Source: a phage
Sequence record: PZ179880.1
Direction: 5' to 3' (one strand)
DNA length: 64,000 nucleotides
Of this stretch, positions 1 to 63,149 are shown piece by piece. Made by a program: the position numbers and the translations under genes. The first letter of the stretch is position 1. The number at the start of each line of letters is the position of its first letter. The notes under the pieces were generated by a model that saw only the letters and a list, made by a program, of their open reading frames with translations, did not search any database and was not told the DNA's origin.

Positions 1-1836
<1,836 letters not shown>

Positions 1837-1864
1837 TATTAAAGCATATTAAAGAGGATTAAAA

Positions 1865-3844
1865 ATGACTTTATTATCTCCGGGCATTGAGCTCAAAGAA
1901 ACTACGGTTCAAAGCACCGTGGTTAATAACTCTACTGGTACAGCAGCTTTGGCCGGTAAATTCCAGTGGGGTCCTGCTTTTCAGATTAAACAGGTTACAA
2001 ATGAAGTAGATTTAGTTAATACTTTTGGTCAACCTACAGCTGAAACTGCTGATTATTTTATGTCTGCAATGAATTTCTTACAATATGGAAATGATTTGCG
2101 AGTTGTGCGTGCTGTCGATAGAGATACCGCTAAAAACTCATCTCCGATTGCTGGTAATATTGAATACACTATTTCTACCCCAGGTAGTAACTACGCGGTT
2201 GGAGATAAAATCACAGTTAAGTATGTTTCAGAAGATGTTGAAACAGAGGGTAAAATTACCGAAGTAGATGCTGATGGAAAAATTAAGAAAATTAATATTC
2301 CTACCGCAAAAATTATCGCTAAAGCGAAAGAAGTCGGTGAATATCCAGAACTAGGTTCTAACTGGACCGCGGAAATTTCTTCGTCTTCATCTGGCTTAGC
2401 TGCAGTAATAACTCTTGGAAAAATTATTACTGATTCCGGTATTTTATTAGCTGAAATTGAAAATGCTGAAGCTGCTATGACAGCAGTTGAATTTCAAACA
2501 AATCTCGAAAAATATGGAATTCCAGGAGTAGTAGCTCTTTATCCAGGCGAGTTGGGCGATAAAATCGAAATTGAAATCGTATCTAAAGCTGACTACGCAA
2601 AAGGTGCTTCTGCATTACTACCAATTTATCCAGGTGGCGGAACACGCGCATCTACTGCCAAAGCAGTGTTTGGATATGGACCACAAACTGATTCGCAATA
2701 CGCTATTATAGTTCGTCGTAATGATGCTATTGTTCAAAGTATTGTTCTTTCAACAAAGCGTGGTGAAAAAGATATTTACGATAGTAACATCTACATTGAT
2801 GACTTTTTCGCAAAAGGCGGTTCAGAATATATTTTTGCAACTGCGCAAAACTGGCCAGAAGGCTTCTCTGGAATTTTAACTCTGTCTGGTGGATTATCAT
2901 CAAATGCTGAAGTAACAGCAGGAGATTTGATGGAAGCCTGGGACTTCTTTGCTGACCGTGAATCTGTTGACGTTCAGTTGTTTATTGCGGGTTCTTGTGC
3001 CGGTGAATCTTTAGAAACAGCATCTACTGTCCAAAAACATGTCGTTTCAATTGGGGATGCACGCCAAGATTGCTTAGTATTGTGCTCACCACCGCGTGAA
3101 ACTGTAGTTGGAATTCCTGTAACTCGTGCTGTTGATAACTTAGTCAATTGGAGAACCGCAGCAGGTTCATACACTGATAATAACTTTAATATCAGTTCAA
3201 CCTACGCAGCAATTGATGGTAACTACAAATATCAGTATGACAAATATAATGATGTAAATCGCTGGGTTCCATTAGCAGCTGATATTGCCGGTTTATGTGC
3301 AAGAACCGATAACGTTTCTCAGACTTGGATGTCTCCAGCTGGTTATAATCGCGGTCAGATTCTTAACGTTATTAAACTTGCTATTGAAACTCGCCAAGCT
3401 CAGCGCGACCGTTTATACCAAGAAGCTATCAACCCAGTAACTGGCACAGGTGGTGATGGTTACGTATTGTATGGTGATAAAACAGCTACTTCTGTTCCTT
3501 CTCCATTTGATCGTATTAACGTTCGTCGTCTGTTTAATATGTTGAAAACGAATATCGGACGTAGTTCAAAATATCGTTTGTTCGAATTAAACAACGCGTT
3601 TACTCGTTCATCATTCCGCACAGAAACTGCCCAATACTTACAGGGAATTAAAGCTCTCGGTGGAATTTATGAATATCGTGTAGTTTGCGATACAACAAAT
3701 AACACTCCGTCAGTAATTGATAGAAATGAGTTTGTTGCAACATTCTACATCCAACCGGCTAGAAGCATTAACTACATTACCTTGAACTTCGTAGCAACTG
3801 CTACTGGTGCAGATTTCGATGAGTTAACTGGTCTTGCAGGTTAA
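1865..3844 (+). CDS. 18: Contractile tail sheath protein gp18
   Basis: 659-aa ORF, same length as T4 gp18; position after gene 17; TATAAATA late promoter upstream. Confidence 0.95.
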   Translation: MTLLSPGIELKETTVQSTVVNNSTGTAALAGKFQWGPAFQIKQVTNEVDLVNTFGQPTAETADYFMSAMNFLQYGNDLRVVRAVDRDTAKNSSPIAGNIEYTISTPGSNYAVGDKITVKYVSEDVETEGKITEVDADGKIKKINIPTAKIIAKAKEVGEYPELGSNWTAEISSSSSGLAAVITLGKIITDSGILLAEIENAEAAMTAVEFQTNLEKYGIPGVVALYPGELGDKIEIEIVSKADYAKGASALLPIYPGGGTRASTAKAVFGYGPQTDSQYAIIVRRNDAIVQSIVLSTKRGEKDIYDSNIYIDDFFAKGGSEYIFATAQNWPEGFSGILTLSGGLSSNAEVTAGDLMEAWDFFADRESVDVQLFIAGSCAGESLETASTVQKHVVSIGDARQDCLVLCSPPRETVVGIPVTRAVDNLVNWRTAAGSYTDNNFNISSTYAAIDGNYKYQYDKYNDVNRWVPLAADIAGLCARTDNVSQTWMSPAGYNRGQILNVIKLAIETRQAQRDRLYQEAINPVTGTGGDGYVLYGDKTATSVPSPFDRINVRRLFNMLKTNIGRSSKYRLFELNNAFTRSSFRTETAQYLQGIKALGGIYEYRVVCDTTNNTPSVIDRNEFVATFYIQPARSINYITLNFVATATGADFDELTGLAG

Positions 3845-3860
3845 TACGGTGCATTCTAAA

Positions 3861-3878
3861 GGCCTGTTTCGGCAGGCC
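3861..3878 (+). terminator. Hairpin terminator after gene 18
   Basis: GGCCTG-tttcgg-CAGGCC stem-loop after the gene 18 stop. Confidence 0.6.
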
Positions 3879-3879
3879 A

Positions 3880-3887
3880 TATAAATA
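3880..3887 (+). promoter_or_regulatory. T4-type late promoter (TATAAATA)
   Basis: Exact TATAAATA directly after the gene 18 terminator hairpin. Confidence 0.6.
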
Positions 3888-3938
3888 CACTATATCCTTA
3901 ATTCTTTAATTCTATATGCCCTAGGTTAAACATAGGGA

Positions 3939-3946
3939 TATAAATA
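3939..3946 (+). promoter_or_regulatory. T4-type late promoter for gene 19
   Basis: Exact TATAAATA 15 nt upstream of the gene 19 ATG. Confidence 0.7.
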
Positions 3947-3960
3947 CTACAGAGGCTAAT

Positions 3961-4452
3961 ATGTTTGTAGATGATGTAACACGAGCGTTTGAATCTGGTG
4001 ATTTTGCTCGACCTAACTTATTCCAAGTAGAAATTTCTTATCTTGGACAAAATTTTACATTCCAATGTAAAGCCACTGCTTTACCAGCTGGTATTGTAGA
4101 AAAAATTCCAGTCGGATTTATGAACCGTAAAATTAACGTAGCAGGCGATCGTACATTCGATGACTGGACTATTACAGTAATGAATGATGAGGCACATGAT
4201 GCTCGCCAGAAGTTTGTTGACTGGCAAAGCATTGCTGCTGGGCAAGGAAACGAAATTACTGGTGGAAAACCAGCAGAGTATAAAAAGAGTGCTATTGTAC
4301 GCCAATATGCTCGTGACGCTAAAACTGTAACAAAAGAAGTCGAAATTAAAGGCCTGTGGCCTACTAACGTGGGTGAACTTCAGTTAGATTGGGATTCAAA
4401 CAATGAAATCCAAACCTTTGAAGTAACTCTCGCTCTCGATTATTGGGAATAA
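3961..4452 (+). CDS. 19: Tail tube protein gp19
   Basis: 163-aa ORF, T4 gp19 length and order; late promoter motifs upstream. Confidence 0.95.
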   Translation: MFVDDVTRAFESGDFARPNLFQVEISYLGQNFTFQCKATALPAGIVEKIPVGFMNRKINVAGDRTFDDWTITVMNDEAHDARQKFVDWQSIAAGQGNEITGGKPAEYKKSAIVRQYARDAKTVTKEVEIKGLWPTNVGELQLDWDSNNEIQTFEVTLALDYWE

Positions 4453-4459
4453 AATGAAT

Positions 4460-4473
4460 GGGGAGAAATCCCC
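4460..4473 (+). terminator. Hairpin after gene 19
   Basis: GGGGA-GAAA-TCCCC stem-loop (GNRA-type loop) after the gene 19 stop. Confidence 0.55.
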
Positions 4474-4484
4474 ATCCTGCTTAA

Positions 4485-6109
<1,625 letters not shown>

Positions 6110-6110
<1 letters not shown>

Positions 6111-6349
6111 TGGAAGGTTTAATTGAAGCTATTAAATCAAACGACCTCGTAGCCGCTCGTAAATTCTTTGCTGAAGCCATGGCTGCAAGAACGATTGATT
6201 TAATTAAAGAAGAAAAAATCGCTATCGCTCGTAATTTCTTAATCGAAGGTGAAGAACCTGATGATGAGGATGATGAAGATAGCGATGATAAAGACGACAA
6301 AAAAGACAAAGACTCTGACGAAGATGACGAAGACGAGGATGATGAATAA
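6110..6349 (+). CDS. 67: Prohead core protein gp67
   Basis: 79-aa ORF with highly acidic D/E-rich C-terminus; ATG overlaps the gene 20 stop (TAATG). Confidence 0.85.
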
Positions 6350-6774
6350 TGCTTCTGATCCCTGAAACTCATGAATTAGTTCTCGAGAATGTCGAAGCAC
6401 TTATTCCTGAAGCACAGGGTCGCTTTGACGAATTGTCTTCTGCTTTAAATAAAGACGATATAAATACAATTGTCGAGAATATGCTTGATGATGAAACTGA
6501 TTTAGCAGTTGCATTAGCTTCTATTAATGAAAATATGCCGTTAAATGAATTCATTGTTAAGCACGTTTCAGCTCGTGGTGAAATTACACGTACTAAAGAC
6601 CGCAAAACACGCGAACGTAATGCATTTCAAACCACTGGGCTGTCTAAAGCAAAACGTAGACAAATTGCTCGCAAAGCTACCAAAACGAAGATTGCCAACC
6701 CAGCAGGTCAATCTCGTGCTCAGCGTAAGCGTAAAAAAGCTCTTAAACGCCGTAAAGCATTAGGATTAAGCTAA
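6349..6774 (+). CDS. 68: Prohead core protein gp68
   Basis: 141-aa ORF, start overlaps the gp67 stop; basic C-terminal tail; T4 order 67-68-21. Confidence 0.85.
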
Positions 6775-7412
6775 TGAATGAACCCCAATTACTAATTGAA
6801 ACTTGGGGTCAACCTGGCGAAATTATTGATGGTGTGCCAATGCTTGAATCTCATGATGGAAAAGACCTCGGTTTAAAACCTGGTTTATACATCGAAGGAA
6901 TATTCATGCAAGCGGAAGTTGTCAATAGAAATAAACGTCTTTATCCAAAACGCATATTAGAAAAAGCGGTAAAAGACTATATCAATGAGCAAGTTTTAAC
7001 AAAACAAGCTCTCGGAGAATTAAATCATCCTCCACGCGCTAATGTTGACCCGATGCAAGCCGCTATCATTATAGAAGATATGTGGTGGAAAGGAAATGAC
7101 GTATACGGACGAGCTCGTGTTATTGAAGGTGACCATGGTCCTGGAGATAAATTAGCAGCTAATATTCGTGCCGGATGGATTCCAGGAGTTTCTTCTCGTG
7201 GATTAGGTTCATTGACTGACACAAATAAAGGTTATCGTATCGTAAACGAAGGATTCAAATTAACTGTAGGTGTTGATGCAGTATGGGGTCCAAGTGCTCC
7301 AGATGCATGGGTAACTCCTAAGGAAATTACCGAATCACAGACGGCGGAAGCCGATACAAGTGCCGATGACGCCTATATGGCTCTCGCAGAGGCCATGAAA
7401 AAAGCGTTATAA
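6774..7412 (+). CDS. 21: Prohead core protease gp21
   Basis: 212-aa ORF, T4 gp21 length and position between 68 and 22. Confidence 0.93.
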   Translation: MNEPQLLIETWGQPGEIIDGVPMLESHDGKDLGLKPGLYIEGIFMQAEVVNRNKRLYPKRILEKAVKDYINEQVLTKQALGELNHPPRANVDPMQAAIIIEDMWWKGNDVYGRARVIEGDHGPGDKLAANIRAGWIPGVSSRGLGSLTDTNKGYRIVNEGFKLTVGVDAVWGPSAPDAWVTPKEITESQTAEADTSADDAYMALAEAMKKAL

Positions 7413-7415
7413 ATA
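7408..7415 (+). promoter_or_regulatory. T4-type late promoter for gene 22
   Basis: Exact TATAAATA overlapping the gene 21 stop, ~28 nt upstream of the gene 22 ATG. Confidence 0.7.
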
Positions 7416-7442
7416 TTATTATCTAAACAACAGGACTACAAA

Positions 7443-8252
7443 ATGCTTAAAGAACAACTGATTGCTGAAGCGCAAAAAATTGATGCTTCCGTTGCTCTTG
7501 ATAGTATTTTCGAATCAGTTAATATTTCTCCGGAAGCAAAAGAAACTTTCGGCACTGTATTCGAAGCTACCGTCAAGCAGCACGCCGTTAAATTAGCTGA
7601 ATCTCATATCGCTAAAATTGCTGAAAAAGCAGAAGAAGAAGTAGAAAAAAATAAAGAAGAAGCTGAAGAAAAAGCTGAGAAGAAAATCGCTGAGCAAGCT
7701 TCTAAATTCATCGACCATCTTGCGAAAGAATGGCTCGCTGAAAATAAATTAGCAGTTGATAAAGGCATCAAAGCCGAACTGTTTGAATCCATGCTTGGTG
7801 GATTAAAAGAGCTCTTTGTTGAACACAACGTTGTTGTTCCAGAAGAATCAGTTGATGTTGTGGCTGAAATGGAAGAAGAGCTGCAAGAACATAAAGAAGA
7901 ATCAGCTCGTCTGTTCGAAGAACTCAATAAGCGTGACGCGTATATCAATTATGTGCAGCGTGAAGTGGCATTGAGCGAAAGTACTAAAGATCTGACTGAG
8001 TCTCAAAAAGAAAAAGTCTCTGCTCTGGTCGAAGGTATGGATTATTCAGATGAATTCTCAAATAAATTGAGTGCCATCGTAGAAATGGTGAAGAAGTCTA
8101 ATAAAGATGAAAGCACTATTACTGAGGGTATAAATACTCCTGATACTGAAGCAGCCGGACTGAATTTCGTCACTGAAGCTGTAGAAGATAAAGCTGCACC
8201 TGGTGCAGAAGATATTGTAAGTGTATATGCGAAAGTCGCATCTCGTTTCTAA
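7443..8252 (+). CDS. 22: Prohead core scaffold protein gp22
   Basis: 269-aa acidic, coiled-coil-rich ORF (E/K/A-rich); T4 gp22 length and position. Confidence 0.93.
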   Translation: MLKEQLIAEAQKIDASVALDSIFESVNISPEAKETFGTVFEATVKQHAVKLAESHIAKIAEKAEEEVEKNKEEAEEKAEKKIAEQASKFIDHLAKEWLAENKLAVDKGIKAELFESMLGGLKELFVEHNVVVPEESVDVVAEMEEELQEHKEESARLFEELNKRDAYINYVQREVALSESTKDLTESQKEKVSALVEGMDYSDEFSNKLSAIVEMVKKSNKDESTITEGINTPDTEAAGLNFVTEAVEDKAAPGAEDIVSVYAKVASRF

Positions 8253-8270
8253 TTTTAAAGGTTAACACAA

Positions 8271-9836
8271 ATGACTATCAAAACTAAAGCTGAACTTTTG
8301 AACAAATGGAAGCCATTACTGGAAGGTGAAGGTTTACCGGAAATTGCTAATAGCAAACAAGCGATTATCGCTAAAATCTTTGAAAACCAGGAAAAAGATT
8401 TCCAGACAGCTCCAGAATACAAAGACGAAAAAATCGCTCAGGCGTTCGGTTCTTTCTTAACAGAAGCTGAAATCGGTGGTGACCACGGTTACAACGCTAC
8501 TAACATCGCTGCTGGTCAGACTTCTGGCGCAGTAACTCAGATTGGCCCAGCTGTTATGGGTATGGTACGTCGTGCTATTCCTAACCTGATTGCTTTCGAT
8601 ATTTGCGGTGTTCAGCCGATGAACAGCCCGACTGGCCAGGTATTCGCACTGCGTGCAGTATATGGTAAAGACCCAATCGCTGCCGATGCTAAAGAAGCAT
8701 TCCACCCAATGTATGGTCCAGATGCAATGTTCTCTGGTCAGGGTGCTGCTAAGAAATTCACTGCTTTAACTGCTGGCGCTACTACTGTCAAAGGTGACAT
8801 CTATACTTATTTCTTCCAGGAAACTGGTACTGTGTATCTGCAGGCTTCCTCTGTAGTAACAATTAGTTCAAGTGCTGATGATGCAGCTAAATTAGATGCT
8901 GAAATTAAGAAACAAATGGAAGCTGGTGTACTGGTAGAAATCGCTGAAGGTATGGCTACTTCTATCGCTGAACTTCAGGAAGGTTTCAACGGTTCTACCG
9001 ATAACCCATGGAATGAAATGGGCTTCCGTATCGATAAACAAGTTATCGAAGCTAAATCTCGTCAGCTGAAAGCTGCTTACTCTATCGAATTAGCACAAGA
9101 CCTCCGCGCTGTTCACGGTATGGATGCTGATGCTGAACTGTCTGGTATTCTGGCTACCGAAATCATGCTGGAAATCAACCGCGAAGTTGTTGATTGGATT
9201 AACTACTCAGCTCAGGTTGGTAAATCTGGTATGACCCTGACTCCGGGTTCTAAAGCTGGTGTATTTGACTTCCAGGATCCGATTGATATTCGTGGTGCTC
9301 GCTGGGCGGGTGAATCCTTTAAAGCTCTGTTGTTCCAGATTGACAAAGAAGCAGTTGAAATTGCTCGTCAAACCGGTCGTGGTGAAGGTAACTTCATTAT
9401 CGCTTCCCGTAACGTAGTTAACGTTCTGGCTTCAGTTGATACTGGCATTTCTTATGCTGCACAGGGTCTGGCTACCGGCTTTAACACTGATACTACCAAG
9501 TCAGTATTTGCTGGTGTTCTGGGTGGTAAATACCGTGTATATATCGACCAGTATGCTAAACAGGATTATTTCACCGTAGGTTATAAAGGTCCGAACGAAA
9601 TGGATGCTGGTATTTACTACGCTCCATATGTAGCTCTGACTCCGCTGCGTGGTTCCGATCCGAAGAACTTCCAACCAGTAATGGGATTCAAAACTCGTTA
9701 CGGTATCGGTATCAACCCATTTGCAGAATCCGCTGCTCAGGCTCCGGCTTCTCGCATCCAGAGCGGTATGCCTTCTATTCTGAATAGCCTTGGTAAAAAC
9801 GCTTACTTCCGCCGTGTATATGTTAAAGGTATCTAA
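8271..9836 (+). CDS. 23: Major capsid protein gp23
   Basis: 521-aa ORF, N-terminus MTIKTKAELLNKWKPLLEGEG as in recalled T4 gp23; strong hairpin terminator immediately downstream. Confidence 0.97.
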   Translation: MTIKTKAELLNKWKPLLEGEGLPEIANSKQAIIAKIFENQEKDFQTAPEYKDEKIAQAFGSFLTEAEIGGDHGYNATNIAAGQTSGAVTQIGPAVMGMVRRAIPNLIAFDICGVQPMNSPTGQVFALRAVYGKDPIAADAKEAFHPMYGPDAMFSGQGAAKKFTALTAGATTVKGDIYTYFFQETGTVYLQASSVVTISSSADDAAKLDAEIKKQMEAGVLVEIAEGMATSIAELQEGFNGSTDNPWNEMGFRIDKQVIEAKSRQLKAAYSIELAQDLRAVHGMDADAELSGILATEIMLEINREVVDWINYSAQVGKSGMTLTPGSKAGVFDFQDPIDIRGARWAGESFKALLFQIDKEAVEIARQTGRGEGNFIIASRNVVNVLASVDTGISYAAQGLATGFNTDTTKSVFAGVLGGKYRVYIDQYAKQDYFTVGYKGPNEMDAGIYYAPYVALTPLRGSDPKNFQPVMGFKTRYGIGINPFAESAAQAPASRIQSGMPSILNSLGKNAYFRRVYVKGI

Positions 9837-9850
9837 TCTTTGACGATTTA

Positions 9851-9868
9851 AGGGACCTTCGGGTCCCT
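9851..9868 (+). terminator. Rho-independent terminator after gene 23
   Basis: AGGGACC-TTCG-GGTCCCT followed by a T-run. Confidence 0.8.
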
Positions 9869-9884
9869 TTAGTTGTTTTTATGG

Positions 9885-9892
9885 TATAAATA
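9885..9892 (+). promoter_or_regulatory. T4-type late promoter for gene 24
   Basis: Exact TATAAATA between the gene 23 terminator and the gene 24 RBS. Confidence 0.7.
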
Positions 9893-9919
9893 AATCATAT
9901 AAACCAAAAGGAAAGCGCA

Positions 9920-11203
9920 ATGGCTAAAATCAACGAACTTCTGCGCGAATCAACCACAACGAATAGCAACTCAATCGGTCGCCCAAATCTCGTTGCTTTG
10001 ACTCGCGCTACCACTAAATTAATATATTCTGACATTGTAGCAACGCAAAGAACTAATCAACCTGTTGCTTCTTTTTATGGTATCAAATACCTTAACCCGG
10101 ATAACGAATTTACATTTAAAACTGGTGCTACTTACGCTGGCGAAGCTGGATACGTAGACCGAGAACAAATCACAGAATTAACAGAAGAGTCTAAATTAAC
10201 TCTCAATAAAGGCGATTTATTCAAATATAATAATATCGTTTATAAAGTATTAGAAGATACACCATTTGCTGATATTGAAGAAAGCGATTTAGAATTAGCT
10301 CTTCAGATTGCAATTGTTCTTTTAAAGGTTCGTCTATTTTCTGATGCCGCAGTAACAAGCAAATTTGAAAGCTCTGATAGTGAAATTGCGGATGCTAGAT
10401 TCCAGATTAATAAATGGCAAACCGCAGTTAAATCTCGTAAACTTAAAACTGGCATCACAGTTGAATTAGCACAAGATTTAGAAGCAAACGGATTCGATGC
10501 TCCTAATTTCTTAGAAGATTTGCTTGCAACTGAAATGGCGGATGAAATCAATAAAGATATTTTGCAGTCTTTGATTACAGTGTCAAAACGCTATAAAGTT
10601 ACAGGAATTACTGATACTGGATTCATTGATTTGAGTTATGCATCTGCACCTGAAGCCGGTCGTTCATTATACCGAATGGTGTGCGAAATGGTTTCACATA
10701 TTCAGAAAGAATCAACTTATACAGCAACGTTCTGTGTTGCTTCAGCTCGTGCCGCTGCGATTCTTGCTGCATCAGGTTGGTTAAAACATAAACCAGAAGA
10801 TGATAAATATCTTTCACAAAATGCCTACGGGTTCTTAGCTAATGGTTTACCGCTTTATTGCGATACCAACAGCCCATTAGATTATGTAATCGTTGGCGTA
10901 GTAGAAAATATCGGTGAAAAAGAAATTGTTGGGTCAATTTTCTATGCTCCGTATACAGAAGGTCTTGACTTAGATGACCCTGAACATGTAGGTGCATTTA
11001 AAGTTGTAGTTGATCCAGAAAGTTTGCAGCCATCTATCGGTTTATTAGTTAGATATGCTTTATCTGCAAATCCTTACACTGTAGCAAAAGATGAAAAAGA
11101 AGCAAGAATAATTGATGGTGGAGACATGGATAAAATGGCAGGTCGTTCAGATTTGTCTGTTTTATTAGGTGTTAAGCTACCAAAAATTATCATTGATGAA
11201 TAA
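9920..11203 (+). CDS. 24: Capsid vertex protein gp24
   Basis: 427-aa ORF, T4 gp24 length; late promoter TATAAATA upstream; terminator downstream. Confidence 0.95.
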   Translation: MAKINELLRESTTTNSNSIGRPNLVALTRATTKLIYSDIVATQRTNQPVASFYGIKYLNPDNEFTFKTGATYAGEAGYVDREQITELTEESKLTLNKGDLFKYNNIVYKVLEDTPFADIEESDLELALQIAIVLLKVRLFSDAAVTSKFESSDSEIADARFQINKWQTAVKSRKLKTGITVELAQDLEANGFDAPNFLEDLLATEMADEINKDILQSLITVSKRYKVTGITDTGFIDLSYASAPEAGRSLYRMVCEMVSHIQKESTYTATFCVASARAAAILAASGWLKHKPEDDKYLSQNAYGFLANGLPLYCDTNSPLDYVIVGVVENIGEKEIVGSIFYAPYTEGLDLDDPEHVGAFKVVVDPESLQPSIGLLVRYALSANPYTVAKDEKEARIIDGGDMDKMAGRSDLSVLLGVKLPKIIIDE

Positions 11204-11208
11204 AACAA

Positions 11209-11226
11209 AGGGACCTTTTGGTCCCT
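11209..11226. terminator. Bidirectional terminator between gene 24 (+) and rnlB (-)
   Basis: AGGGACC-TTTT-GGTCCCT flanked by A/T runs on both sides. Confidence 0.75.
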
Positions 11227-11232
11227 TTTTAT

Positions 11233-12237
11233 TTAACTTACCAATTCAATCCAAGCCGGACGAAGTACATCTTGTACCATTTTAACTAATTCCTTCTTAA
11301 TCAAAGAAGGATTATCTGCTTGAGTTAGAGTAATACCTTCACGAGAAGTTTCTTCCAAAATATCTTGAACCGTTAGTCCCATCACCTTTCCAAAATCTTT
11401 TGGACCAATTTCGCCAATTTTAGAAATAACGTTATTTACTCGGTTCAGTGTAACGTAACAAGCTAAAATTCCAACCAATTTGTTATCAGCTTCTGACAGT
11501 TCAACTTTAGCTTTAATAGGCTTATCGGACTTTTTCTTTTCACTAAATTTAGAGTTCTTGCATTTGATGGCTACACGATTGCCGTTATGCAGCCAAGAAG
11601 GATAACAAGGTTTCAATACATATCCTTCAGCGGTAAATACTTCGCCTTTTGCTTCAGCATTCCAAACGCATTTATTTGCATCAACTAATCCAGCATGGTC
11701 TACTGTAAAATTATAATCTTGGACGACAGAATCTAAATCATTTGGCAATTTAATCAGCTCTTCAAATTTACCACGACCTAAAAGTGGAGCCATTTTAAAT
11801 TTAAATGTATTACAGAATGATTCCATCATATAATCATCGACATAAGTAACATCACCACTTTCTGTAGTAACAATAATGTCAAATACATAAAAATCTTTAT
11901 CACCATAATCGACATTCTTCTGAATGCCAGGTCCAGCGAATTCGCCAAAAACTTGATAAGATACAACTGCTGAAGTTTCCATAATATCTTGTACTGCTTT
12001 AATGGAATCAGCGTAATTCTTCAAAATAATTTCATACCCAAAGAAATCTTCGGCAGGAAGAATAGGACCAGTGCGTTTAGCACAAGTTACTTTATCACGC
12101 TCAATAATCAATGAGAAATTTGTGCCATGAATCTTTTCACGAGCTACCCATTCGCCGCCAGTCAATCCTAAACTGTAAAGTTTTTCAATGAATTTAGAAT
12201 TGTAATGATTTTCAAGACTGCTATACTTTTTAAACAT
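11233..12237 (-). CDS. rnlB: RNA ligase 2 (Rnl2)
   Basis: 334-aa ORF; nucleotidyltransferase lysine motif context EKIHGTN; matches recalled T4 Rnl2 (gene 24.1) sequence, length and position. Confidence 0.92.
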
Positions 12238-12246
12238 AATTAATCC

Positions 12247-12525
12247 TCAAAATGTAATTTCTAACCAATCACCATCACGCTGATCACTATTGACTTTAAA
12301 GCTAAATCCTTCTTTTCTCAGCCAATCACCGATTTCTTCAGTAATCAATTTATCGCGAGCAGTACAATAATAACTAAAATATGTTTTACCTTGTTCAGCT
12401 GCTTTATTAGCAAGTTCCGAAAAATCTTTAATAAAACACTCTAGCTTAAACTGTTTACTTTTAAGTGCTTTTTCGCGTAATCGATTAGCAAAAGATTCAT
12501 TTTCATAAAGATCATACTGTTCCAT
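12247..12525 (-). CDS. 24.2: Hypothetical protein (T4 24.2 position)
   Basis: 92-aa ORF co-oriented and tightly packed downstream of rnlB. Confidence 0.7.
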   Translation of the reverse strand: MEQYDLYENESFANRLREKALKSKQFKLECFIKDFSELANKAAEQGKTYFSYYCTARDKLITEEIGDWLRKEGFSFKVNSDQRDGDWLEITF

Positions 12526-12727
12526 TTTTCACCTTTTTATTAATATGTCTTTTTCTGTAAACAACTTTTTCTCGAGTTTCAAATTTATTCTTAGCAGTCA
12601 TAGCTCGAGCCCATAATACAGCCACTTCTTTCGCCTGTAAGTTTAATTCACGAGCAATTTCAATGAATGACTTTCCAGACTCATGAAGAGTAAACACCAC
12701 AACCTCAGTTCTCATAATCAATCTCAT
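12512..12727 (-). CDS. 24.3: Small protein with helix-turn-helix-like segment (T4 24.3 position)
   Basis: 71-aa ORF; segment GKSFIEIARELNLQAKEVAVLWARA resembles an HTH; start uncertain (internal Met possible). Confidence 0.6.
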   Translation of the reverse strand: MRLIMRTEVVVFTLHESGKSFIEIARELNLQAKEVAVLWARAMTAKNKFETREKVVYRKRHINKKVKNGTV

Positions 12728-12796
12728 GTTATCGAGTTGATGCCATTATATACATCATTTTCTGAGTGTGTTTTGTGTGCTTTCAAAATGAAGAAA

Positions 12797-12810
12797 GGGG
12801 CCGAAGCCCC
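12797..12810 (-). terminator. Terminator after hoc
   Basis: GGGGC-CGAA-GCCCC hairpin immediately downstream of the hoc stop. Confidence 0.7.
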
Positions 12811-12816
12811 TTATGA

Positions 12817-14232
12817 TTATGGATAGGTATAGATGATACCAGTTTCTAAAGCAGTTTTATGAATGATGTATCCATTACGTGATTCTTGAACATCGACTTC
12901 TGGATAGTCTTTCATCATCTTCTGAAGAGTGTAACGATGCAGGTAGTATTTACTATCTGGATCTTCAGTTTTCCAATCTTTACCTTCTTCGGTCATTTTT
13001 TGGATTTCATCCATAACCCACCAACCGCACCAGATATAAGCTGAAGTACGATGTGGAAGAGGATGAACATAAGGCAATTCACCTTCTGGTTCTGGAGCAA
13101 CTTTAGCCGTGACTGTTACATTACCAGTTTTGGTAACGGTTACAGGGTTATAATCTGCAGCAGATACAACAACAGAAACGCCAATCACTTGGGACCCTAT
13201 ATCAGACGTGTCAATCGCTAAAGTGCTAGTAGAACCTTCTACAGGAGAACCATCTTTGGTCCATGAATAAGCTACAGATGCTCCTGCCGGCGCTCCAGTA
13301 ACATCGGCTTTAAAAGATGCTTCTGCTCCTTTTTCAGTGGTAATTGAACTAGGCGTCAGAGTAACAGAAACGGCTCCCATAGTCTTTTTAGTAAAAACAA
13401 CCTCAATACCGTTAGTCGCAGTAGCTGGGTTATAATTTGATGCAGAAACCGTTACTTCACAATTCAATGTGTAATTAGCTTCTGCGGGTTCAGTTATGGT
13501 AATTGTTTTAGCAGTCTGACCTTCAATAACGGCAGTATCACGTTTCCAAACATAAGCGATACTTGCACCTTCTGGAGCACCAACAACGTTAGCTGTAACT
13601 ACCTGAGACTGCCCAATCTCTTTGGAAACAGAAGTCGGGCTCAAAGTAACCGAAACACCGCTCATGGTCTTTTTAATAAAAGCAACAGCAATGCCTTTAG
13701 TTGCAGTTCCATTATTATAGTCTGGAGCAGAAACCGTTACTTCACAATTCAATGTGTAGCTGGTTTCCGTCGATTCAGTCAAGGTAATTGTTTTACCAGT
13801 TTGACCGGAAATAACAGAAGAGCCACGTTTCCAAACATAAGCAATGCTTGCTCCTGACGGTGCGCCAGTAACATCAGCTGTGACTACCTGAGATTGACCA
13901 ACTTCCTTAGAAACAGAAGTCGGGCTCAAGGTTAAAGTAATTGCAGGCATAGTTTTGTTCTGAACGGTCAGAGTGGTTTCTGCCTCAGCAGTTTCTGCCG
14001 CACCCTCTGCTGGGGTAACAGTAGCAACTACTTTAACAGTCTTACTACCTGCAGGTCCTGCAGCAACATAATTCATAGCTGCGGTGACAGAAGATTGTTT
14101 TACGCCGTTTACTGTCCACACAAACGTTTCTGTGCCTTCAGCTGCGGCACCAGAAGTTGTTGCAGTAAAATTGGTTGTTGCTCCAATGACTGCCGAAGCG
14201 GCCAAAGGAGCAATAGATACGCTATAAGCCAT
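12817..14232 (-). CDS. hoc: Highly antigenic outer capsid protein Hoc, four Ig-like domains
   Basis: 471-aa ORF; C-terminal capsid-binding region matches recalled T4 Hoc; four ~95-aa Ig-like repeats where T4 Hoc (376 aa) has three. Confidence 0.9.
   Translation of the reverse strand: MAYSVSIAPLAASAVIGATTNFTATTSGAAAEGTETFVWTVNGVKQSSVTAAMNYVAAGPAGSKTVKVVATVTPAEGAAETAEAETTLTVQNKTMPAITLTLSPTSVSKEVGQSQVVTADVTGAPSGASIAYVWKRGSSVISGQTGKTITLTESTETSYTLNCEVTVSAPDYNNGTATKGIAVAFIKKTMSGVSVTLSPTSVSKEIGQSQVVTANVVGAPEGASIAYVWKRDTAVIEGQTAKTITITEPAEANYTLNCEVTVSASNYNPATATNGIEVVFTKKTMGAVSVTLTPSSITTEKGAEASFKADVTGAPAGASVAYSWTKDGSPVEGSTSTLAIDTSDIGSQVIGVSVVVSAADYNPVTVTKTGNVTVTAKVAPEPEGELPYVHPLPHRTSAYIWCGWWVMDEIQKMTEEGKDWKTEDPDSKYYLHRYTLQKMMKDYPEVDVQESRNGYIIHKTALETGIIYTYP
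13384..13953 (-). repeat. Tandem direct repeat (2 x ~285 bp) encoding near-identical Ig-like domains within hoc
   Basis: Protein segments aa 94-188 and 189-283 of Hoc are highly similar (SPTSVSKE[VI]GQSQVVTA...NCEVTVSA...KKTM); a third, more diverged copy lies at 13099..13383. Confidence 0.8.
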
Positions 14233-14241
14233 AGGTGTTCC

Positions 14242-14922
14242 TTATTTTAATGTTACGAAAGAAGAATTACGTGTTTCACGAATTAGAACTGATCCGTCGC
14301 GATTAATGTAATAAATTAAGCTAAATAAAGTTTGGTGCGCAGACGCATGTTCAAAACTAGTTGGGTGAGATTTCCAATCTGGAGTTTCAGCAATCCATTG
14401 GTAAATCCACCAAGGAACAGTGCAGAATCCTGGATTTTTTCCAATCAGCTGAAGATTTGGGCTAAAGTTTTCCGGAAGAGTAAATACAGGCGGCTTTTCA
14501 GATTCAATAATCTCAGCTACAGCCTGCTCGAATTTTTCTTCAACAAAAGGAGTATCTTCAATCAAAACATCGGTATTTTCAGGAATTTTATCCGTTTCTA
14601 CTACTTCAATTTTAATGTCAGATTTAACCGGAGAATCAATCAGAAGTGCTGCCTCTGGATTGACTTCTTCATCGTCATATTTTAACCCCTCTGCAGCATC
14701 AGCAGCATTGATTAAGTCTTTAATAGATAACCCATCAGTCTCTGGCATAGGTTCACTAGCGAGCTTCTGGAGGGCTTCTTCAATATCATTAACGATATTA
14801 TCAAAAGATTTATTCTTTTTGACCTTTATACCAAACTGTTCAGCATATTCAGCTAATTTAGCCTTAGCTTCTTTATTATCATCAAGAGCCTTCAGCTCTG
14901 CAATATAATCTTTATCTATCAT
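14242..14922 (-). CDS. inh: Inhibitor of prohead protease (Inh)
   Basis: 226-aa ORF at the T4 inh position between hoc and uvsW. Confidence 0.8.
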   Translation of the reverse strand: MIDKDYIAELKALDDNKEAKAKLAEYAEQFGIKVKKNKSFDNIVNDIEEALQKLASEPMPETDGLSIKDLINAADAAEGLKYDDEEVNPEAALLIDSPVKSDIKIEVVETDKIPENTDVLIEDTPFVEEKFEQAVAEIIESEKPPVFTLPENFSPNLQLIGKNPGFCTVPWWIYQWIAETPDWKSHPTSFEHASAHQTLFSLIYYINRDGSVLIRETRNSSFVTLK

Positions 14923-14935
14923 AATATTTCCTCAG

Positions 14936-14943
14936 TATAAATA
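14936..14943 (+). promoter_or_regulatory. T4-type late promoter for uvsW
   Basis: Exact TATAAATA ~30 nt upstream of the uvsW ATG. Confidence 0.65.
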
Positions 14944-14972
14944 TAGATATATTTATTACATGGTATTTAGAC

Positions 14973-16484
14973 ATGACTGACATTAAAGTACATTTTTATG
15001 ATTTTAGTCACGTGAGAATTGATTGTGAAGAAAGTACATTTCATGAACTCCGTGATTTCTTTAGCTTTGAAGCCGATGGGTATCGTTTTAATCCAAAGTA
15101 CAAATATGGTCACTGGGATGGACGAATCCGTCTTTTAGATTATAATCGTCTTCTTCCATTCGGCTTAGTCGGGCAAATTAAAAAGTTCTGCGATAACTTT
15201 GGCTATAAAGCCTGGATTGACCCACAGATTAACGAAAAAGAAGAATTATCAAGAAAAGATTTTGATGAATGGCTTTCTAAATTAGAAATCTATTCAGGAA
15301 ATAAAAGAATTGAACCGCATTGGTATCAAAAAGATGCAGTATTCGAAGGATTAGTTAATCGTCGTAGAATTCTTAATCTTCCAACATCCGCAGGTAAATC
15401 TTTAATTCAAGCTTTGCTTGCTCGGTATTATTTGGAAAATTATGAAGGTAAAATTCTTATCATTGTTCCAACAACTGCTCTGACAACTCAGATGGCTGAT
15501 GACTTTGTTGACTATCGTTTATTCAGTCATGCAATGATAAAGAAAATTGGCGGTGGAGCATCAAAAGATGATAAATATAAAAATGATGCACCAGTCGTTG
15601 TTGGTACATGGCAAACTGTAGTAAAACAACCAAAAGAATGGTTCTCACAGTTTGGAATGATGATGAATGATGAATGCCATCTTGCTACAGGAAAAAGTAT
15701 TTCATCTATCATATCAGGTTTAAATAACTGTATGTTTAAATTTGGTTTGTCTGGTTCATTGCGCGATGGCAAAGCTAATATAATGCAGTATGTTGGAATG
15801 TTTGGTGAAATATTTAAGCCAGTAACGACTTCTAAATTGATGGAAGATGGACAAGTAACTGAGCTAAAAATTAATAGTATTTTTCTTCGCTATCCCGATG
15901 AGTTCACTACTAAATTAAAGGGAAAAACTTACCAAGAAGAAATAAAAATTATTACTGGACTCAGTAAAAGAAATAAATGGATCGCTAAATTAGCTATTAA
16001 ACTTGCGCAAAAAGATGAAAACGCTTTTGTCATGTTTAAGCATGTATCACATGGTAAAGCTATTTTCGATTTAATTAAAAATGAATACGATAAAGTTTAT
16101 TACGTATCAGGGGAAGTTGATACTGAAACACGCAACGTAATGAAAACCTTAGCTGAAAACGGTAAAGGAATAATTATAGTAGCTAGTTATGGTGTATTTT
16201 CTACTGGTATTTCAGTTAAAAATCTGCATCACGTTGTTTTAGCGCACGGTGTTAAATCTAAAATTATTGTATTGCAAACAATAGGTCGCGTATTACGTAA
16301 GCATGGTTCTAAAACAATCGCAACGGTCTGGGACCTCATAGATGATTGTGGTGTTAAGCCAAAATCTGCTAATACGAAAAAGAAATACGTTCATTTGAAC
16401 TATCTTTTAAAACACGGCATTGATCGTATTCAGCGCTACGCAGATGAAAAATTTAATTACGTAATGAAAACAGTTAATTTATAA
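14973..16484 (+). CDS. uvsW: UvsW DNA/RNA helicase (SF2)
   Basis: 503-aa ORF; Walker A LPTSAGKS and DEAD-like MNDECH motifs; T4 UvsW length; late promoter upstream. Confidence 0.93.
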   Translation: MTDIKVHFYDFSHVRIDCEESTFHELRDFFSFEADGYRFNPKYKYGHWDGRIRLLDYNRLLPFGLVGQIKKFCDNFGYKAWIDPQINEKEELSRKDFDEWLSKLEIYSGNKRIEPHWYQKDAVFEGLVNRRRILNLPTSAGKSLIQALLARYYLENYEGKILIIVPTTALTTQMADDFVDYRLFSHAMIKKIGGGASKDDKYKNDAPVVVGTWQTVVKQPKEWFSQFGMMMNDECHLATGKSISSIISGLNNCMFKFGLSGSLRDGKANIMQYVGMFGEIFKPVTTSKLMEDGQVTELKINSIFLRYPDEFTTKLKGKTYQEEIKIITGLSKRNKWIAKLAIKLAQKDENAFVMFKHVSHGKAIFDLIKNEYDKVYYVSGEVDTETRNVMKTLAENGKGIIIVASYGVFSTGISVKNLHHVVLAHGVKSKIIVLQTIGRVLRKHGSKTIATVWDLIDDCGVKPKSANTKKKYVHLNYLLKHGIDRIQRYADEKFNYVMKTVNL

Positions 16485-16497
16485 GGGCTTCGGCCCT
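16484..16497 (+). terminator. Hairpin between uvsW and uvsW.1 (terminator or RNA stability element)
   Basis: AGGGC-TTCG-GCCCT directly after the uvsW stop and overlapping the uvsW.1 RBS region. Confidence 0.5.
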
Positions 16498-16509
16498 TTG
16501 GAGAAAAAG

Positions 16510-16740
16510 ATGTTACTAGAATTTAAACAATTTCTTTATGAAGCTTCTATTGATGAATTTATGGGTAAAATTGCCTCTTGTCAAACATTAGAAGGTCTAG
16601 AAGAACTTGAAGCTTATTATAAGAAAAGAGTTAAAGAAACTGAATTAAAAGATACTGATGACATCTCTGTGAGAGATGCTTTGGCAGGAAAAAGAGCTGA
16701 ATTAGAAGATTCAGACGATGAAGTAGAAGAAAGCTTTTAA
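16510..16740 (+). CDS. uvsW.1: UvsW.1 small acidic protein
   Basis: ORF track opens at TTG 16498; ATG at 16510 after GGAGAAAAAG gives 76 aa, the T4 UvsW.1 length. Confidence 0.85.
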   Translation: MLLEFKQFLYEASIDEFMGKIASCQTLEGLEELEAYYKKRVKETELKDTDDISVRDALAGKRAELEDSDDEVEESF

Positions 16741-16795
16741 ATTAAAAAAGGCCCAACCAAAAAGGAAGGGCCAAAACTATAGACTAAAGGTCACA

Positions 16796-16963
16796 CTATA
16801 GCAAAAGTTGTGTTTCATTTAATTGTTCTTCAGAACTTTCTGAAACTGGTAGTTCTTTAATGTAATTATAACAAGGCCCAGGATGTACAGGACCTTTGTC
16901 TGTTTCAACAACCAATGCAGAATCGATTGGAGTTTTACAGACAACACAAATCTTATCTGACAT
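16796..16963 (-). CDS. uvsY.-2: Small Cys-containing protein (zinc-ribbon-like), T4 uvsY.-2 position
   Basis: 55-aa ORF read by hand (below the ORF-track size cut-off): MSDKICVVCKTPIDSALVVETDKGPVHPGPCYNY...; three Cys; sits between a terminator hairpin and uvsY.-1. Confidence 0.6.
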   Translation of the reverse strand: MSDKICVVCKTPIDSALVVETDKGPVHPGPCYNYIKELPVSESSEEQLNETQLLL

Positions 16964-17003
16964 GATTGTCTCCTCTAAATTATATATCTATTTATATAAC
17001 TAT

Positions 17004-17641: not shown

Positions 17642-17707
17642 GTTGTTCTCTATTCAATTGTTATTGGATGGACTTAGATTCATTATACCACGTTTATACG
17701 TGAAGCA

Positions 17708-25022: not shown

Positions 25023-25026
25023 CAAT

Positions 25027-25044
25027 GGGGACCGAAAGGTCCCC
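25027..25044. terminator. Bidirectional terminator between gene 54 (+) and the alt block (-)
   Basis: GGGGACC-GAAA-GGTCCCC followed by a T-run. Confidence 0.8.
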
Positions 25045-25050
25045 ATATTT

Positions 25051-29587: not shown

Positions 29588-29592
29588 AAATT

Positions 29593-29610
29593 AAAGGCCC
29601 GAAGGCCTTT
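29593..29610 (-). terminator. Terminator between the gene 30 operon and alt
   Basis: AAAGGCC-CGAA-GGCCTTT overlapping the stop of the 62-aa ORF. Confidence 0.7.
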
Positions 29611-29797
29611 AATAATCTATTGGTAAGAGAGTACGATATATTTCAAACTTTGGACCTTTTTCATAAGCATCAAATGTTTCTGTGAATTTATTATAAGCAT
29701 ATGCATCTATAAATTCAATCATAATTTGTGATACAGAAGTAGAAACATCTCCACCTTCTTTTTGAGCAACGACAATTGTTTCTAAGTAAGCTTTCAT
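29609..29797 (-). CDS. Hypothetical small protein
   Basis: 62-aa ORF; ATG overlaps the gene 30 stop (ATGA); followed by a terminator hairpin. Confidence 0.6.
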   Translation of the reverse strand: MKAYLETIVVAQKEGGDVSTSVSQIMIEFIDAYAYNKFTETFDAYEKGPKFEIYRTLLPIDY

Positions 29798-33510: not shown

Positions 33511-33526
33511 AGGGGCCGAAGCCCCT
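33511..33526 (-). terminator. Intercistronic hairpin in the 30.x block
   Basis: AGGGGC-CGAA-GCCCCT between two small ORFs. Confidence 0.5.
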
Positions 33527-34358: not shown

Positions 34359-34387
34359 AACTTTGTGCAATCTTTGGAAAATAAAAA

Positions 34388-34407
34388 AGGACTCCCGAAG
34401 GAGTCCT
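34388..34407 (-). terminator. Rho-independent terminator after the 30.9-like gene
   Basis: AGGACTCC-CGAA-GGAGTCCT followed on the minus strand by TTTTTTATTTT. Confidence 0.8.
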
Positions 34408-34411
34408 CAAC

Positions 34412-42808: not shown

Positions 42809-42835
42809 AATAAAATGGGCCTTGCGGCCCACTCC

Positions 42836-51129: not shown

Positions 51130-51149
51130 GGGGGACCTCTAGGGTCCCC
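51130..51149 (-). terminator. Rho-independent terminator after gene 32
   Basis: GGGGACC-tctag-GGTCCCC followed on the minus strand by a run of nine T. Confidence 0.85.
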
Positions 51150-59439: not shown

Positions 59440-59444
59440 ACTGA

Positions 59445-59462
59445 GGGAGCCTTCGGGTTCCC
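59445..59462 (+). terminator. Terminator after gene 35
   Basis: GGGAGCC-TTCG-GGTTCCC (one G-U wobble) followed by TTTTTCTTT. Confidence 0.75.
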
Positions 59463-59470
59463 TTTTTCTT

Positions 59471-63112: not shown

Positions 63113-63118
63113 CAGCAA

Positions 63119-63134
63119 GGGGGAAATTTCCCCC
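63119..63134 (+). terminator. Hairpin after gene 37
   Basis: GGGGGAAATTTCCCCC palindrome followed by TTTGG, between 37 and 38. Confidence 0.6.
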
Positions 63135-63149
63135 TTTGGAGTATAAATT

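Follow-up and report, generated by a model that had tools for sequence, protein, structure and literature searches.

Hairpins in a T4-like genome segment

The window, by which we mean the whole 64,000-nucleotide stretch of phage DNA that was analysed (PZ179880.1), has a G+C content of about 36%. In stretches of 4-25 kb it is about 98% identical to many Escherichia/Shigella Tequatrovirus genomes, and its gene order is collinear with T4 genes 17-38, which identifies it as a T4-like (Tequatrovirus) segment. Gene names were carried over from the T4 reference AF158101 by tblastn. The window contains gene 17, the head genes 20-24, rnlB, hoc, uvsW, the baseplate genes 25-54 and alt. Next comes the early region on the minus strand, from gene 30 through gene 32, and after it the tail-fibre genes 34-37 with a gp38-like gene. 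Relative to T4, segD, segE, segG, the td intron and the nrdB intron are absent, and a few additional small ORFs are present. Intergenic DNA amounts to 2453 nt, which is 3.8% of the window. The T4 reference annotation (AF158101) contains no terminator features, and no family was matched when the whole window was scanned with Rfam at gathering thresholds.

A sequence-only reading of this DNA had described ten G/C-rich intergenic hairpins as a recurrent family used as terminators. All ten are present. Three more intergenic members, at 3861-3878 (UUCG loop), 4458-4475 (GAAA) and 63117-63136 (AAUU), had been overlooked, as had a fourteenth site (42816-42831, GCAA) located between the Shine-Dalgarno sequence and the AUG of denA. 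The hairpins and the promoters named with them are the following (energies in kcal/mol):

3861..3878, plus strand: GGCCUGU-UUCG-GCAGGCC, 16 nt past the gene 18 stop; -12.8, z -3.2; without U-tract, adjoining a late promoter TATAAATA at 3880, 1 nt past the stem
4458..4475, plus strand: AUGGGGA-GAAA-UCCCCAU, 5 nt past the gene 19 stop; -11.3, z -2.7; no U-tract on the plus strand, late promoter at 4500, 24 nt past the stem
9850..9869, plus strand: predicted gene 23 terminator, AAGGGACC-UUCG-GGUCCCUU, then UAGUUGUUUU; -20.3, z -4.7
9885..9892, plus strand: late promoter TATAAATA for gene 24, 3' of the gene 23 hairpin; its counterparts after other hairpins are at 3880, 4500 and 59471 (plus) and 29580 (minus)
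11207..11228, both strands: predicted bidirectional terminator between the convergent genes 24 (plus) and rnlB (minus), AAAGGGACC-UUUU/AAAA-GGUCCCUUU; a T-rich tail on each strand
12795..12812, minus strand: predicted hoc terminator, AAGGGGC-UUCG-GCCCCUU, then UCUUCAUUUU; 4 nt past the hoc stop; -12.6
16483..16498, plus strand: AAGGGC-UUCG-GCCCUU, overlapping the uvsW stop; -9.5, z -1.2, weaker than any other member; without U-tract, immediately 5' of the GGAG Shine-Dalgarno sequence and the AUG of uvsW.1
25025..25046, both strands: predicted bidirectional terminator between the convergent genes 54 (plus) and alt.-3 (minus), AUGGGGACC-GAAA/UUUC-GGUCCCCAU; -18.2/-18.3
29590..29613, minus strand: hairpin at the end of alt.1, AUUAAAGGCC-UUCG-GGCCUUUAAU, overlapping the alt.1 stop; -14.5; U-tract weak
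29580-29587, minus strand: late promoter TATAAATA for alt, 3 nt downstream of the 29590 hairpin
33511..33526, minus strand: AGGGGC-UUCG-GCCCCU, between 30.7 and 30.6; -11.8; without U-tract, the 30.6 Shine-Dalgarno sequence GAGG starting 4 nt past the stem
34387..34408, minus strand: predicted 30.9 terminator, GAGGACUCC-UUCG-GGAGUCCUU, then UUUUAUUUU; -16.4, z -4.9; early-type promoter TTTACA-N17-TAGTAT 29 nt downstream (PeSL-type layout)
51131..51149, minus strand: predicted gene 32 terminator, GGGGACC-CUAGA-GGUCCCC, then 9 U; -13.9; early-type promoter TTTACA-N17-TACTAT 35 nt downstream
59443..59464, plus strand: predicted gene 35 terminator, GAGGGAGCC-UUCG-GGUUCCCUU with one G.U pair, then UUUCUUUA; -15.1; gene 36 late promoter at 59471, 6 nt downstream
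63117..63136, plus strand: AAGGGGGA-AAUU-UCCCCCUU, 4 nt past the gene 37 stop; -14.8; without U-tract, the GGAG Shine-Dalgarno sequence of the gp38-like gene 1 nt past the stem
42816..42831, minus strand: UGGGCC-GCAA-GGCCCA, between AAGGAG and the denA AUG (split SD-AUG arrangement)

To be counted in the scan, a hairpin had to have a 4-nt loop and a perfect stem of 5 bp or more, four or more of them G:C pairs; 300 dinucleotide-preserving shuffles served as the null. Under these criteria the window contained 17 G/C-rich tetraloop hairpins, whereas the shuffled sequences had 2.1 ± 1.4 (maximum 6), and in the same scan TTCG/CGAA loops were observed seven times versus 0.007 in the shuffles. A terminator scan of bases 1-20000 yielded 24 hits versus 11.6 ± 3.5. 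All 13 intergenic hairpins fold as the minimum free energy structure, with energies of -9.5 to -20.3 kcal/mol and z-scores mostly between -2.2 and -5.3. The inverted-repeat scan with folding energies, which the sequence-only reading had proposed, thus revealed both the excess over shuffles and the stability of all intergenic members. The repeated G/C-rich hairpins are real and far commoner than base composition predicts; as a chance product of composition they are rejected by the shuffles. Their placement is equally regular: the 13 hairpins are confined to the 3.8% of the window that is intergenic, where 13 of the 33 regions that measure 14 nt or more have one, each hairpin 0-22 nt past a stop codon.

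Loop polarity and conservation

The loops had been given as TTCG, CGAA, GAAA or TTTT. The TTCG, GAAA and TTTT loops stand as described. The CGAA loops, at 12797, 29593, 33511 and 34388, read UUCG on the transcribed strand, at these sites the minus strand, and the hairpin at 51130 is not a tetraloop, as its loop has 5 nt (CUAGA on the sense strand). The hairpin read as 9851-9868 (AGGGACC TTCG GGTCCCT) has a full stem of 8 bp extending over 9850-9869.

The UUCG tetraloop of the textbooks comes from such T4 hairpins. In the window, UUCG lies on the sense strand in ten of the ten UUCG-looped hairpins, a count made up of eight intergenic members and two in coding sequence (27418-27433 and 17119-17140). 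The closing pair is C-G in seven of the eight intergenic UUCG hairpins, the exception being 3861 with U.G. GNRA-type loops occur at 4458 and 25025 (GAAA) and at 42816 (GCAA), and loops that are neither UUCG nor GNRA at 11207 (UUUU/AAAA), 51131 (5-nt loop) and 63117 (AAUU). The uniform sense-strand polarity of UUCG indicates a role at the RNA level, with selection acting on RNA rather than on duplex DNA. This fits the extra stability conferred on short RNA stems by a UUCG loop, and such loops are described as unusually stable (Tuerk et al. 1988, PNAS 85:1364, as cited in PMC7165471). In a search of the T4 genome, CTTCGG was found with complementary flanks in more than half of its sense-strand occurrences and in none of the antisense ones (PMC7165471).

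Every one of these junctions bears a hairpin in T4 as well (that at 37/38 being of different sequence and in SD-AUG position). The C(UUCG)G/GNRA intercistronic hairpins of T4, as reported from Tuerk et al. 1988 in PMC7165471, are of the same genus and occupy largely the same orthologous sites. They likewise are C-G closed and of sense polarity, likewise serve several uses (termination, intercistronic sites and ribosome-binding sites), and show no difference in kind from those of this phage. The 3861 and gene 32 hairpins are identical in T4, and elsewhere the differences are small: the gene 23 stem is GGGACC in this phage versus GGGAACC in T4, the 24/rnlB loop UUUU versus UUUC, and the 30.7 loop UUCG versus UUCA. 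The hairpin at 37/38 differs from that of T4, and this difference is tied to a different gp38 module.

The 10-kb flanks of gp24, gp30 and gp32 homologues were taken from viral contigs, and the sequences downstream of orthologous stop codons were compared. In T4 and about 25 relatives the orthologous sites retain a hairpin with the stem altered on both sides, and hairpins are retained in loci down to about 27-70% protein identity. Downstream of 18, 19, 23, 24, hoc, 54, alt.1, 30.7, 30.9, 32 and 35 the hairpin is kept, with a varying stem, in most lineages. The 5' arms at the gene 23 site, for instance, read GGGACC, GGGAACC, GGAGCC, GGGAGCC and GGGAGAC. Among 87 distinct variants, TTCG loops were found 36 times, GNRA loops 15 times and CGAA loops three times. 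At the gene 18 site, a different stem with ATAAATA adjoining it is present in lineages B and C and at two of the four lineage-D loci, the remaining two having unrelated sequence after the hairpin. In relatives, the gene 19 site has GAAA or UUCG hairpins whose stems differ, the hoc site other stems with mostly UUCG loops, the 30.7 site UUCG, UUUG or GAAA loops, and the gene 32 site UUCG hairpins on other stems. The 25025 site keeps its position while stems vary and the loop orientation flips, and at the gene 35 site the order of hairpin followed by TATAAATA persists at about 27-36% gp35 identity. The uvsW hairpin (16483) is restricted to the closest relatives; elsewhere the Shine-Dalgarno sequence directly overlaps the stop codon.

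Covariation was analysed for two of the sites. In alignments anchored on the best hairpin downstream of each gene, where the percentage paired is partly a matter of construction, 92.3% of the cells were paired among 13 orthologues of the gene 35 site and 98.4% among eight distinct orthologues of the gene 23 site. Seven of eight pairs had changed on both sides at gene 35 and five of eight at gene 23, and in neither case did any of 500 shuffles reach the score. At both genes the covariation in these loop-anchored alignments had a clear maximum at register 0. Some of the stem differences may have arisen by replacement of the whole hairpin instead of by stepwise compensatory change; either way, the hairpin is selected for at these positions.

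Probable termination, possible transcript protection and translational effects

Judged by sequence, eight of the 13 intergenic hairpins look like intrinsic terminators, two of them bidirectional, whereas the other five are not canonical terminators. The former combine a G/C-rich stem in post-stop position with a T-rich tail right after the stem (at least 4-7 T within the first 8 nt), which makes them candidates for canonical Rho-independent terminators. The U-tract is on the transcribed strand at 9850, 11207 (both strands), 12795, 25025 (both strands), 29590 (weakly), 34387, 51131 and 59443. At 11207 and 25025 convergent genes meet at a perfect palindrome with T-rich tails on both strands, and these two are therefore the putative bidirectional terminators. 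No U-tract was found directly after the stem at 3861, 4458, 16483, 33511 and 63117. The use as terminators, which had been proposed for the family as a whole, is supported by sequence for most members, the eight with a U-tract. With the intrinsic terminators of E. coli and its phages the hairpins share the G/C-rich stem of 6-10 bp, the short loop, the 3' U-rich tract, the A-rich 5' flank, the location after stop codons and the palindromes at convergent junctions. They differ from them by the five members without U-tract and by the unusual frequency of UUCG loops (8/13). The T4 gene 32 terminator reportedly flanks the omega interposon, which is said to go back to Prentki and Krisch in 1984. TransTerm predictions at the same junctions have been published by Nolan et al. 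2006 (PMC1524935); their predicted terminators are at conserved locations, namely 3' of genes 23 and 32, at the 35/36 junction and upstream of alt, the last of these being conserved in five of six genomes.

Taken as a whole, the family very probably consists of stable tetraloop hairpins acting at the RNA level, mostly as terminators. A short, stable G/C-rich hairpin capped by UUCG (or GNRA) and set immediately after the stop codon would, together with a U-rich tract, constitute a Rho-independent terminator for the host RNA polymerase and would end or attenuate the upstream unit, and the perfect palindromes at the two convergent junctions would serve both strands. At the 3' end of the released mRNA the hairpin should block 3'-to-5' exonucleases, and a late (TATAAATA) or early promoter just downstream would restart transcription, so that neighbouring units would be insulated from each other and their relative expression levels set. 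The five members without U-tract would probably act only as barriers at mRNA 3' ends or in processing, or would modulate the ribosome-binding site next to them. The analysis itself shows that the hairpins exist, are not random, and are regular in placement, strand polarity and evolutionary conservation of the structure; that they terminate transcription, protect RNA and affect translation we infer from the sequence taken together with the T4 literature.

It is possible, though we consider it doubtful, that the hairpins serve mainly as mRNA 3'-end protectors or processing barriers, with polymerase reading through, nucleases trimming the message back to the hairpin, and the stable tetraloop stem determining where the upstream message ends and what half-life it has. 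This would accommodate the five of 13 members that have no U-tract and the unusual stability added by UUCG loops (PMC7165471). Moreover, the mapped 3' ends of T4 early and middle (prereplicative) RNAs are regarded as the ends of stable RNA and not as termination sites (PMC6024815), and T4 mRNA is subject to host 3' exonucleases (PMC3014915). However, the canonical T-rich tail follows the stem directly in eight of 13 hairpins and is kept in relatives. In addition, a PeSL stem-loop of RB49/phi1 was cloned in a lacZ fusion vector as a test of termination (PMC2839356), and the abstract of that paper calls such stem-loops effective transcription terminators. Termination and RNA protection are not mutually exclusive, and protection is a serious, non-exclusive rival of the terminator reading, above all for the five members lacking a U-tract.

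The hairpins had also been said to lie frequently just upstream of late promoters and to form terminator-promoter cassettes with them. Only three of the ten hairpins first described (9851, 29593 and 59445) are followed by TATAAATA on the same strand within the next 60 nt. When all 13 are considered, TATAAATA is found 1-24 nt past the stem end at five (3861, 4458, 9850, 29590 and 59443), an early sigma-70-like promoter follows two others (34387 and 51131), and the remainder have no promoter. The cassette reading would therefore hold for some members, about half. Cassettes of this kind are known as PeSL, for promoter-early stem-loop (Arbiol et al. 2010, PMC2839356; Comeau et al. 2014, PMC4122927), in which stem-loop terminators stand beside early promoters and are enriched near indels in hyperplastic regions. 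The hairpins of the window have in common with PeSLs the G-run/C-run stem-loop, the promoter, the Shine-Dalgarno sequence and the ATG, as well as a proposed role in modular shuffling, but the published layout with early-type promoters is found only at 34387 and 51131. Five hairpins precede late TATAAATA promoters in conserved blocks of structural genes and not early promoters in hyperplastic regions.

At 16483, 33511 and 63117, GGAG or GAGG and then a start codon come within 1-4 nt of the hairpin, which at these three sites is probably part of the ribosome-binding-site context and not a terminator; the 16483 hairpin is intercistronic and, as its sequence reads, not of the canonical terminator type. 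Perhaps, although the chances are rather against it, some members act on downstream translation, either by isolating the ribosome-binding site from upstream structure or terminating ribosomes when the hairpin precedes the Shine-Dalgarno sequence, or by shortening the effective spacing when it is located between the Shine-Dalgarno sequence and the AUG. Besides the three sites just named, the 42816 hairpin between AAGGAG and the denA AUG argues for such an effect. It matches the split SD-AUG hairpins of T4 genes 38 and 25, as these are reported in PMC3014915 from Nivinskas et al. 1999 and Malys and Nivinskas 2009, and in architecture it is like the C(UUCG)G hairpin of T4 gene 38, at this one site only. 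At the 37/38 junction of T4, the hairpin located between SD and AUG is of the C(UUCG)G type and is described as a translation enhancer, and initiation is enhanced by such hairpins at T4 genes 38 and 25 (PMC3014915). By analogy with these two genes, the denA hairpin may have a similar function. On the other hand, a translational role would cover at most four of the 14 sites, and the uvsW hairpin is dispensable since only the closest relatives have it. The 37/38 hairpin of the window lies upstream of the Shine-Dalgarno sequence, unlike that of T4.

As a discovery the family matters little. The finding is already known for T4-type phages (Tuerk 1988, Nolan 2006, Arbiol and Comeau 2010/2014), and both conserved terminators and the idea of a terminator-promoter cassette have previously been reported in comparative T4 genomics. 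The practical value is in annotation, where the predicted terminators delimit the transcription units of this phage and the hairpins flag three junctions at which a ribosome-binding-site context, and not a terminator, is probable.

Proposed recombination, loop inversion and recurrent stems

The repeated motif had further been suggested as a site of recombination and module exchange, and as a check the module boundaries in related phages were to be compared with the hairpins. Homology breaks between the window on one side and T4 and four near-identical contigs on the other were mapped, which gave 51 distinct breakpoints, 24 of them at gene junctions. Five of these 24 fell at hairpin junctions versus 3.7 expected from the 13 of 84 junctions that bear a family hairpin (p=0.31), and when distinct junctions with breakpoints were counted, a hairpin was present in four of 20 (p=0.37). 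A coincidence of this kind was not borne out by the comparison with T4 and the four contigs: the hairpins are not preferential exchange points within this window, and in this respect, too, they are unlike PeSLs.

That the hairpins or hairpin-promoter cassettes are DNA-level recombination sites for module exchange, as the PeSL model would have it, appears improbable. Several observations are in its favor: G-run/C-run stem-loops of PeSLs occur near indels, with mini-circles in RB49/phi1 (PMC2839356, PMC4122927), and in the window breakpoints adjoin hairpins at 9847, 16467, 33524 and 51115, the first being the segD indel beside the gene 23 hairpin, in an intergenic region of only 83 nt. Loop inversions (see below) are DNA-level events in palindromes, and stems at separate sites of one genome are more alike than expected. 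Against these stand, apart from the unenriched breakpoints, the lack of a family hairpin at the boundaries of segE, segG, orf175, orf106, orf65, orf81/111, orf100 and the introns as well as at the breaks inside hoc, alt and genes 36/37. The sense polarity of UUCG in ten of ten cases would not be expected of a duplex-DNA site, and the copies share their stems only, about 12-20 nt. In the PeSL experiments themselves the crossovers were between the -10 element and the SD/ATG, i.e. in the promoter/SD part and not in the stem-loop (PMC2839356/PMC4122927).

Hardly any credence can be given to the idea that the hairpins derive from a small REP- or MITE-like repeat, mobile or dispersed, or that base composition produced them by chance. 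A GGGACC/GGTCCC core is common to several copies, but the likeness stops at the stem, the shuffles exclude chance, and each copy is at an orthologous position kept across distant relatives, with precise post-stop placement and strand polarity. A REP/MITE-like mobile repeat was ruled out, as there is no flanking similarity and the positions are orthologous in T4 and distant relatives.

Among near-identical phages, the loops of perfect-palindrome stems were found in both orientations. Such pairs are UUUU/AAAA and UUUC/GAAA at 24/rnlB, GAAA/UUUC and GCAA/UUGC at 54/alt.-3, and CAAG/CUUG and UUCG/CGAA after hoc, and they must be small inversions. The inversions occur often where genes converge but seldom at unidirectional junctions, a difference which points to RNA-level selection for UUCG on the sense strand. 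Their frequency would show that the DNA hairpins are dynamic, RNA-level selection then filtering the outcome so that sense UUCG is kept at unidirectional sites.

Stems at non-orthologous sites of the same genome were compared as well. In eight genomes 18 identical 6-mer pairs were counted versus 8.3 in permutations (p about 0.001), and in four lineages 15 versus 9.0 (p about 0.02). This suggests some homogenisation of stems within a genome and should be taken as a lead only, given the few independent lineages and the constrained sequence space. In the lineage of this phage the recurrent 'house' stem is GGGACC (after genes 23, 24, 54 and 32), in a second lineage GGAGCC (after 23, hoc, 54 and 32) and in a third GGAGAC, and the identity reaches 18-20 nt, loop included. 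We put forward only tentatively that, within a genome, the evolution of one terminator hairpin is not independent of that of the others and that a lineage 'house' stem recurs at non-orthologous sites. If true, this would imply that dispersed terminators occasionally undergo gene conversion or copy-paste, i.e. concerted evolution, or alternatively co-evolution with a lineage-specific factor recognising the stem. Restriction-site content (e.g. GGWCC) was considered as a cause of the lineage stems and dropped, since in glucosyl-HMC DNA such a cause is implausible. Hundreds of complete Tequatrovirus genomes exist, and the flips of loop orientation at bidirectional sites versus the fixed UUCG polarity at unidirectional ones, together with the lineage stems, bear on how far short regulatory palindromes are homogenised by recombination in a highly recombinogenic phage.

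A minor observation concerns the end of uvsW, where the T4 reference reads AAGCTTCGGCCCTT and this phage AAGGGCTTCGGCCCTT. The GG is missing in AF158101, and as a result uvsW is fused to uvsW.1 in that record. The fusion is a known error, which has been corrected by resequencing (PMC1524935). The hairpin at this site offers an explanation, as the error would have arisen by band compression.

Recurrent stems and inverted loops of the terminators

Certain 'house' stems, which differ from lineage to lineage, recur at non-orthologous terminators. The stem is GGGACC in this phage (window 9850, 11207, 25025 and 51131) and GGAGCC or GGAGAC in other lineages, and non-orthologous terminators with the same house stem are identical over up to 18-20 nt, loop included. 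When identical 6-mer stems at non-orthologous sites within one genome were counted in eight genomes, 18 pairs were found versus 8.3 by permutation (p about 0.001); permutation at the level of four lineages gave 15 versus 9.0 (p about 0.02). The recurring house stems may be the product of concerted evolution.

It was also observed that near-identical phages can carry the loop in inverted form inside terminators that are perfect palindromes (window 11216-11219 and 25034-25037; viral-contig loci L003-L009 and L018-L026). Among the near-identical phages compared, convergent junctions often showed such an inversion, unidirectional junctions only rarely.

Inverted loop pairs
24/rnlB terminator, window loop 11216-11219: tttt/aaaa; tttc/gaaa
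54/alt.-3 terminator, window loop 25034-25037: gaaa/tttc; gcaa/ttgc
Hairpin after hoc: caag/cttg; ttcg/cgaa

Differences from T4 and from the most distant lineage

A 'GG' of the uvsW hairpin (16483-16498) is missing from T4 AF158101 at about 114190 (AAGCTTCGGCCCTT), and as a consequence uvsW and uvsW.1 are fused in that record, which is a known error (PMC1524935). The error probably originated from band compression at this hairpin. The 54/alt.-3 hairpin reads GGTCCCC in the window (25025-25046) versus GGTCC in the T4 record (about 122725), a difference that breaks the palindrome.

Gene content was also compared with T4. No segD, segE or segG and no td or nrdB intron was found in the window, and the following differences were noted.

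Gene content differing from T4
25402-27459, (-): second alt paralogue, full-length, 685 aa; T4 counterpart, the remnants alt.-1 and alt.-2
12817-14232, (-): Hoc, 471 aa vs 376 in T4, with a homology break within hoc
37307-37834, 39469-39789, 48427-48624, 49202-49791, 50102-50404: extra small ORFs of 175, 106, 65, 81, 111 and 100 aa

Downstream of gene 19 in the most distant lineage (loci L013, L015 and L017), the order of motif and hairpin at the 19/20 junction is reversed, the TATAAATA-like motif (ATAAATA) coming first and the UUCG hairpin following it. Should ATAAATA be the late promoter, the hairpin of this lineage would belong to the 5' leader of the late gene 20 transcript and not to the 3' end of the gene 19 message.

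Hairpins at other positions

Hairpins and paired elements
16750-16772: bidirectional terminator after uvsW.1, GGCCC...GGGCC, 13-nt loop with a 2-bp inner stem
17119-17140, (-): sense-strand UUCG hairpin GUCAGGAUA-UUCG-UAUCCUGGC in uvsY.-1 coding sequence
27418-27433, (-): sense-strand UUCG hairpin CGGCGC-UUCG-GCGCCG in coding sequence, 26 nt into the alt paralogue
25335-25400 (-) and 41153-41215 (-): pair of near-identical elements, each about 55 nt long, one upstream of alt.-3 and the other upstream of alc
42816-42831, (-): GCAA-tetraloop hairpin between AAGGAG and AUG at the denA start

The uvsW.1 terminator, the conserved one highlighted by Nolan et al. 2006 (PMC1524935), has folding energies of -14.9 and -16.6 kcal/mol, one per strand, and an architecture unlike that of the tetraloop family. 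It was absent from the hairpins listed in the sequence-only reading.

The elements upstream of alt.-3 and alc share the sequence TTACAAGTCCCTCGTGTTGTGTTATA..TGACATAACATGAGG and fold into a hairpin of 15 bp, with energies of -21 to -24 kcal/mol and a z-score of about -5. One side of the pairing is the spacer between the two boxes of an early-type promoter (TTTACA-N17-TATAAT), the other the GAGG Shine-Dalgarno sequence downstream. The hairpin may mask this Shine-Dalgarno sequence, and do so only on read-through transcripts.

The position of the denA hairpin suggests, by analogy with T4 genes 38 and 25, a ribosome-binding site split between Shine-Dalgarno sequence and AUG. It also suggests that the AUG following the hairpin is the start codon of DenA, in place of the GTG further upstream to which the T4 annotation points.
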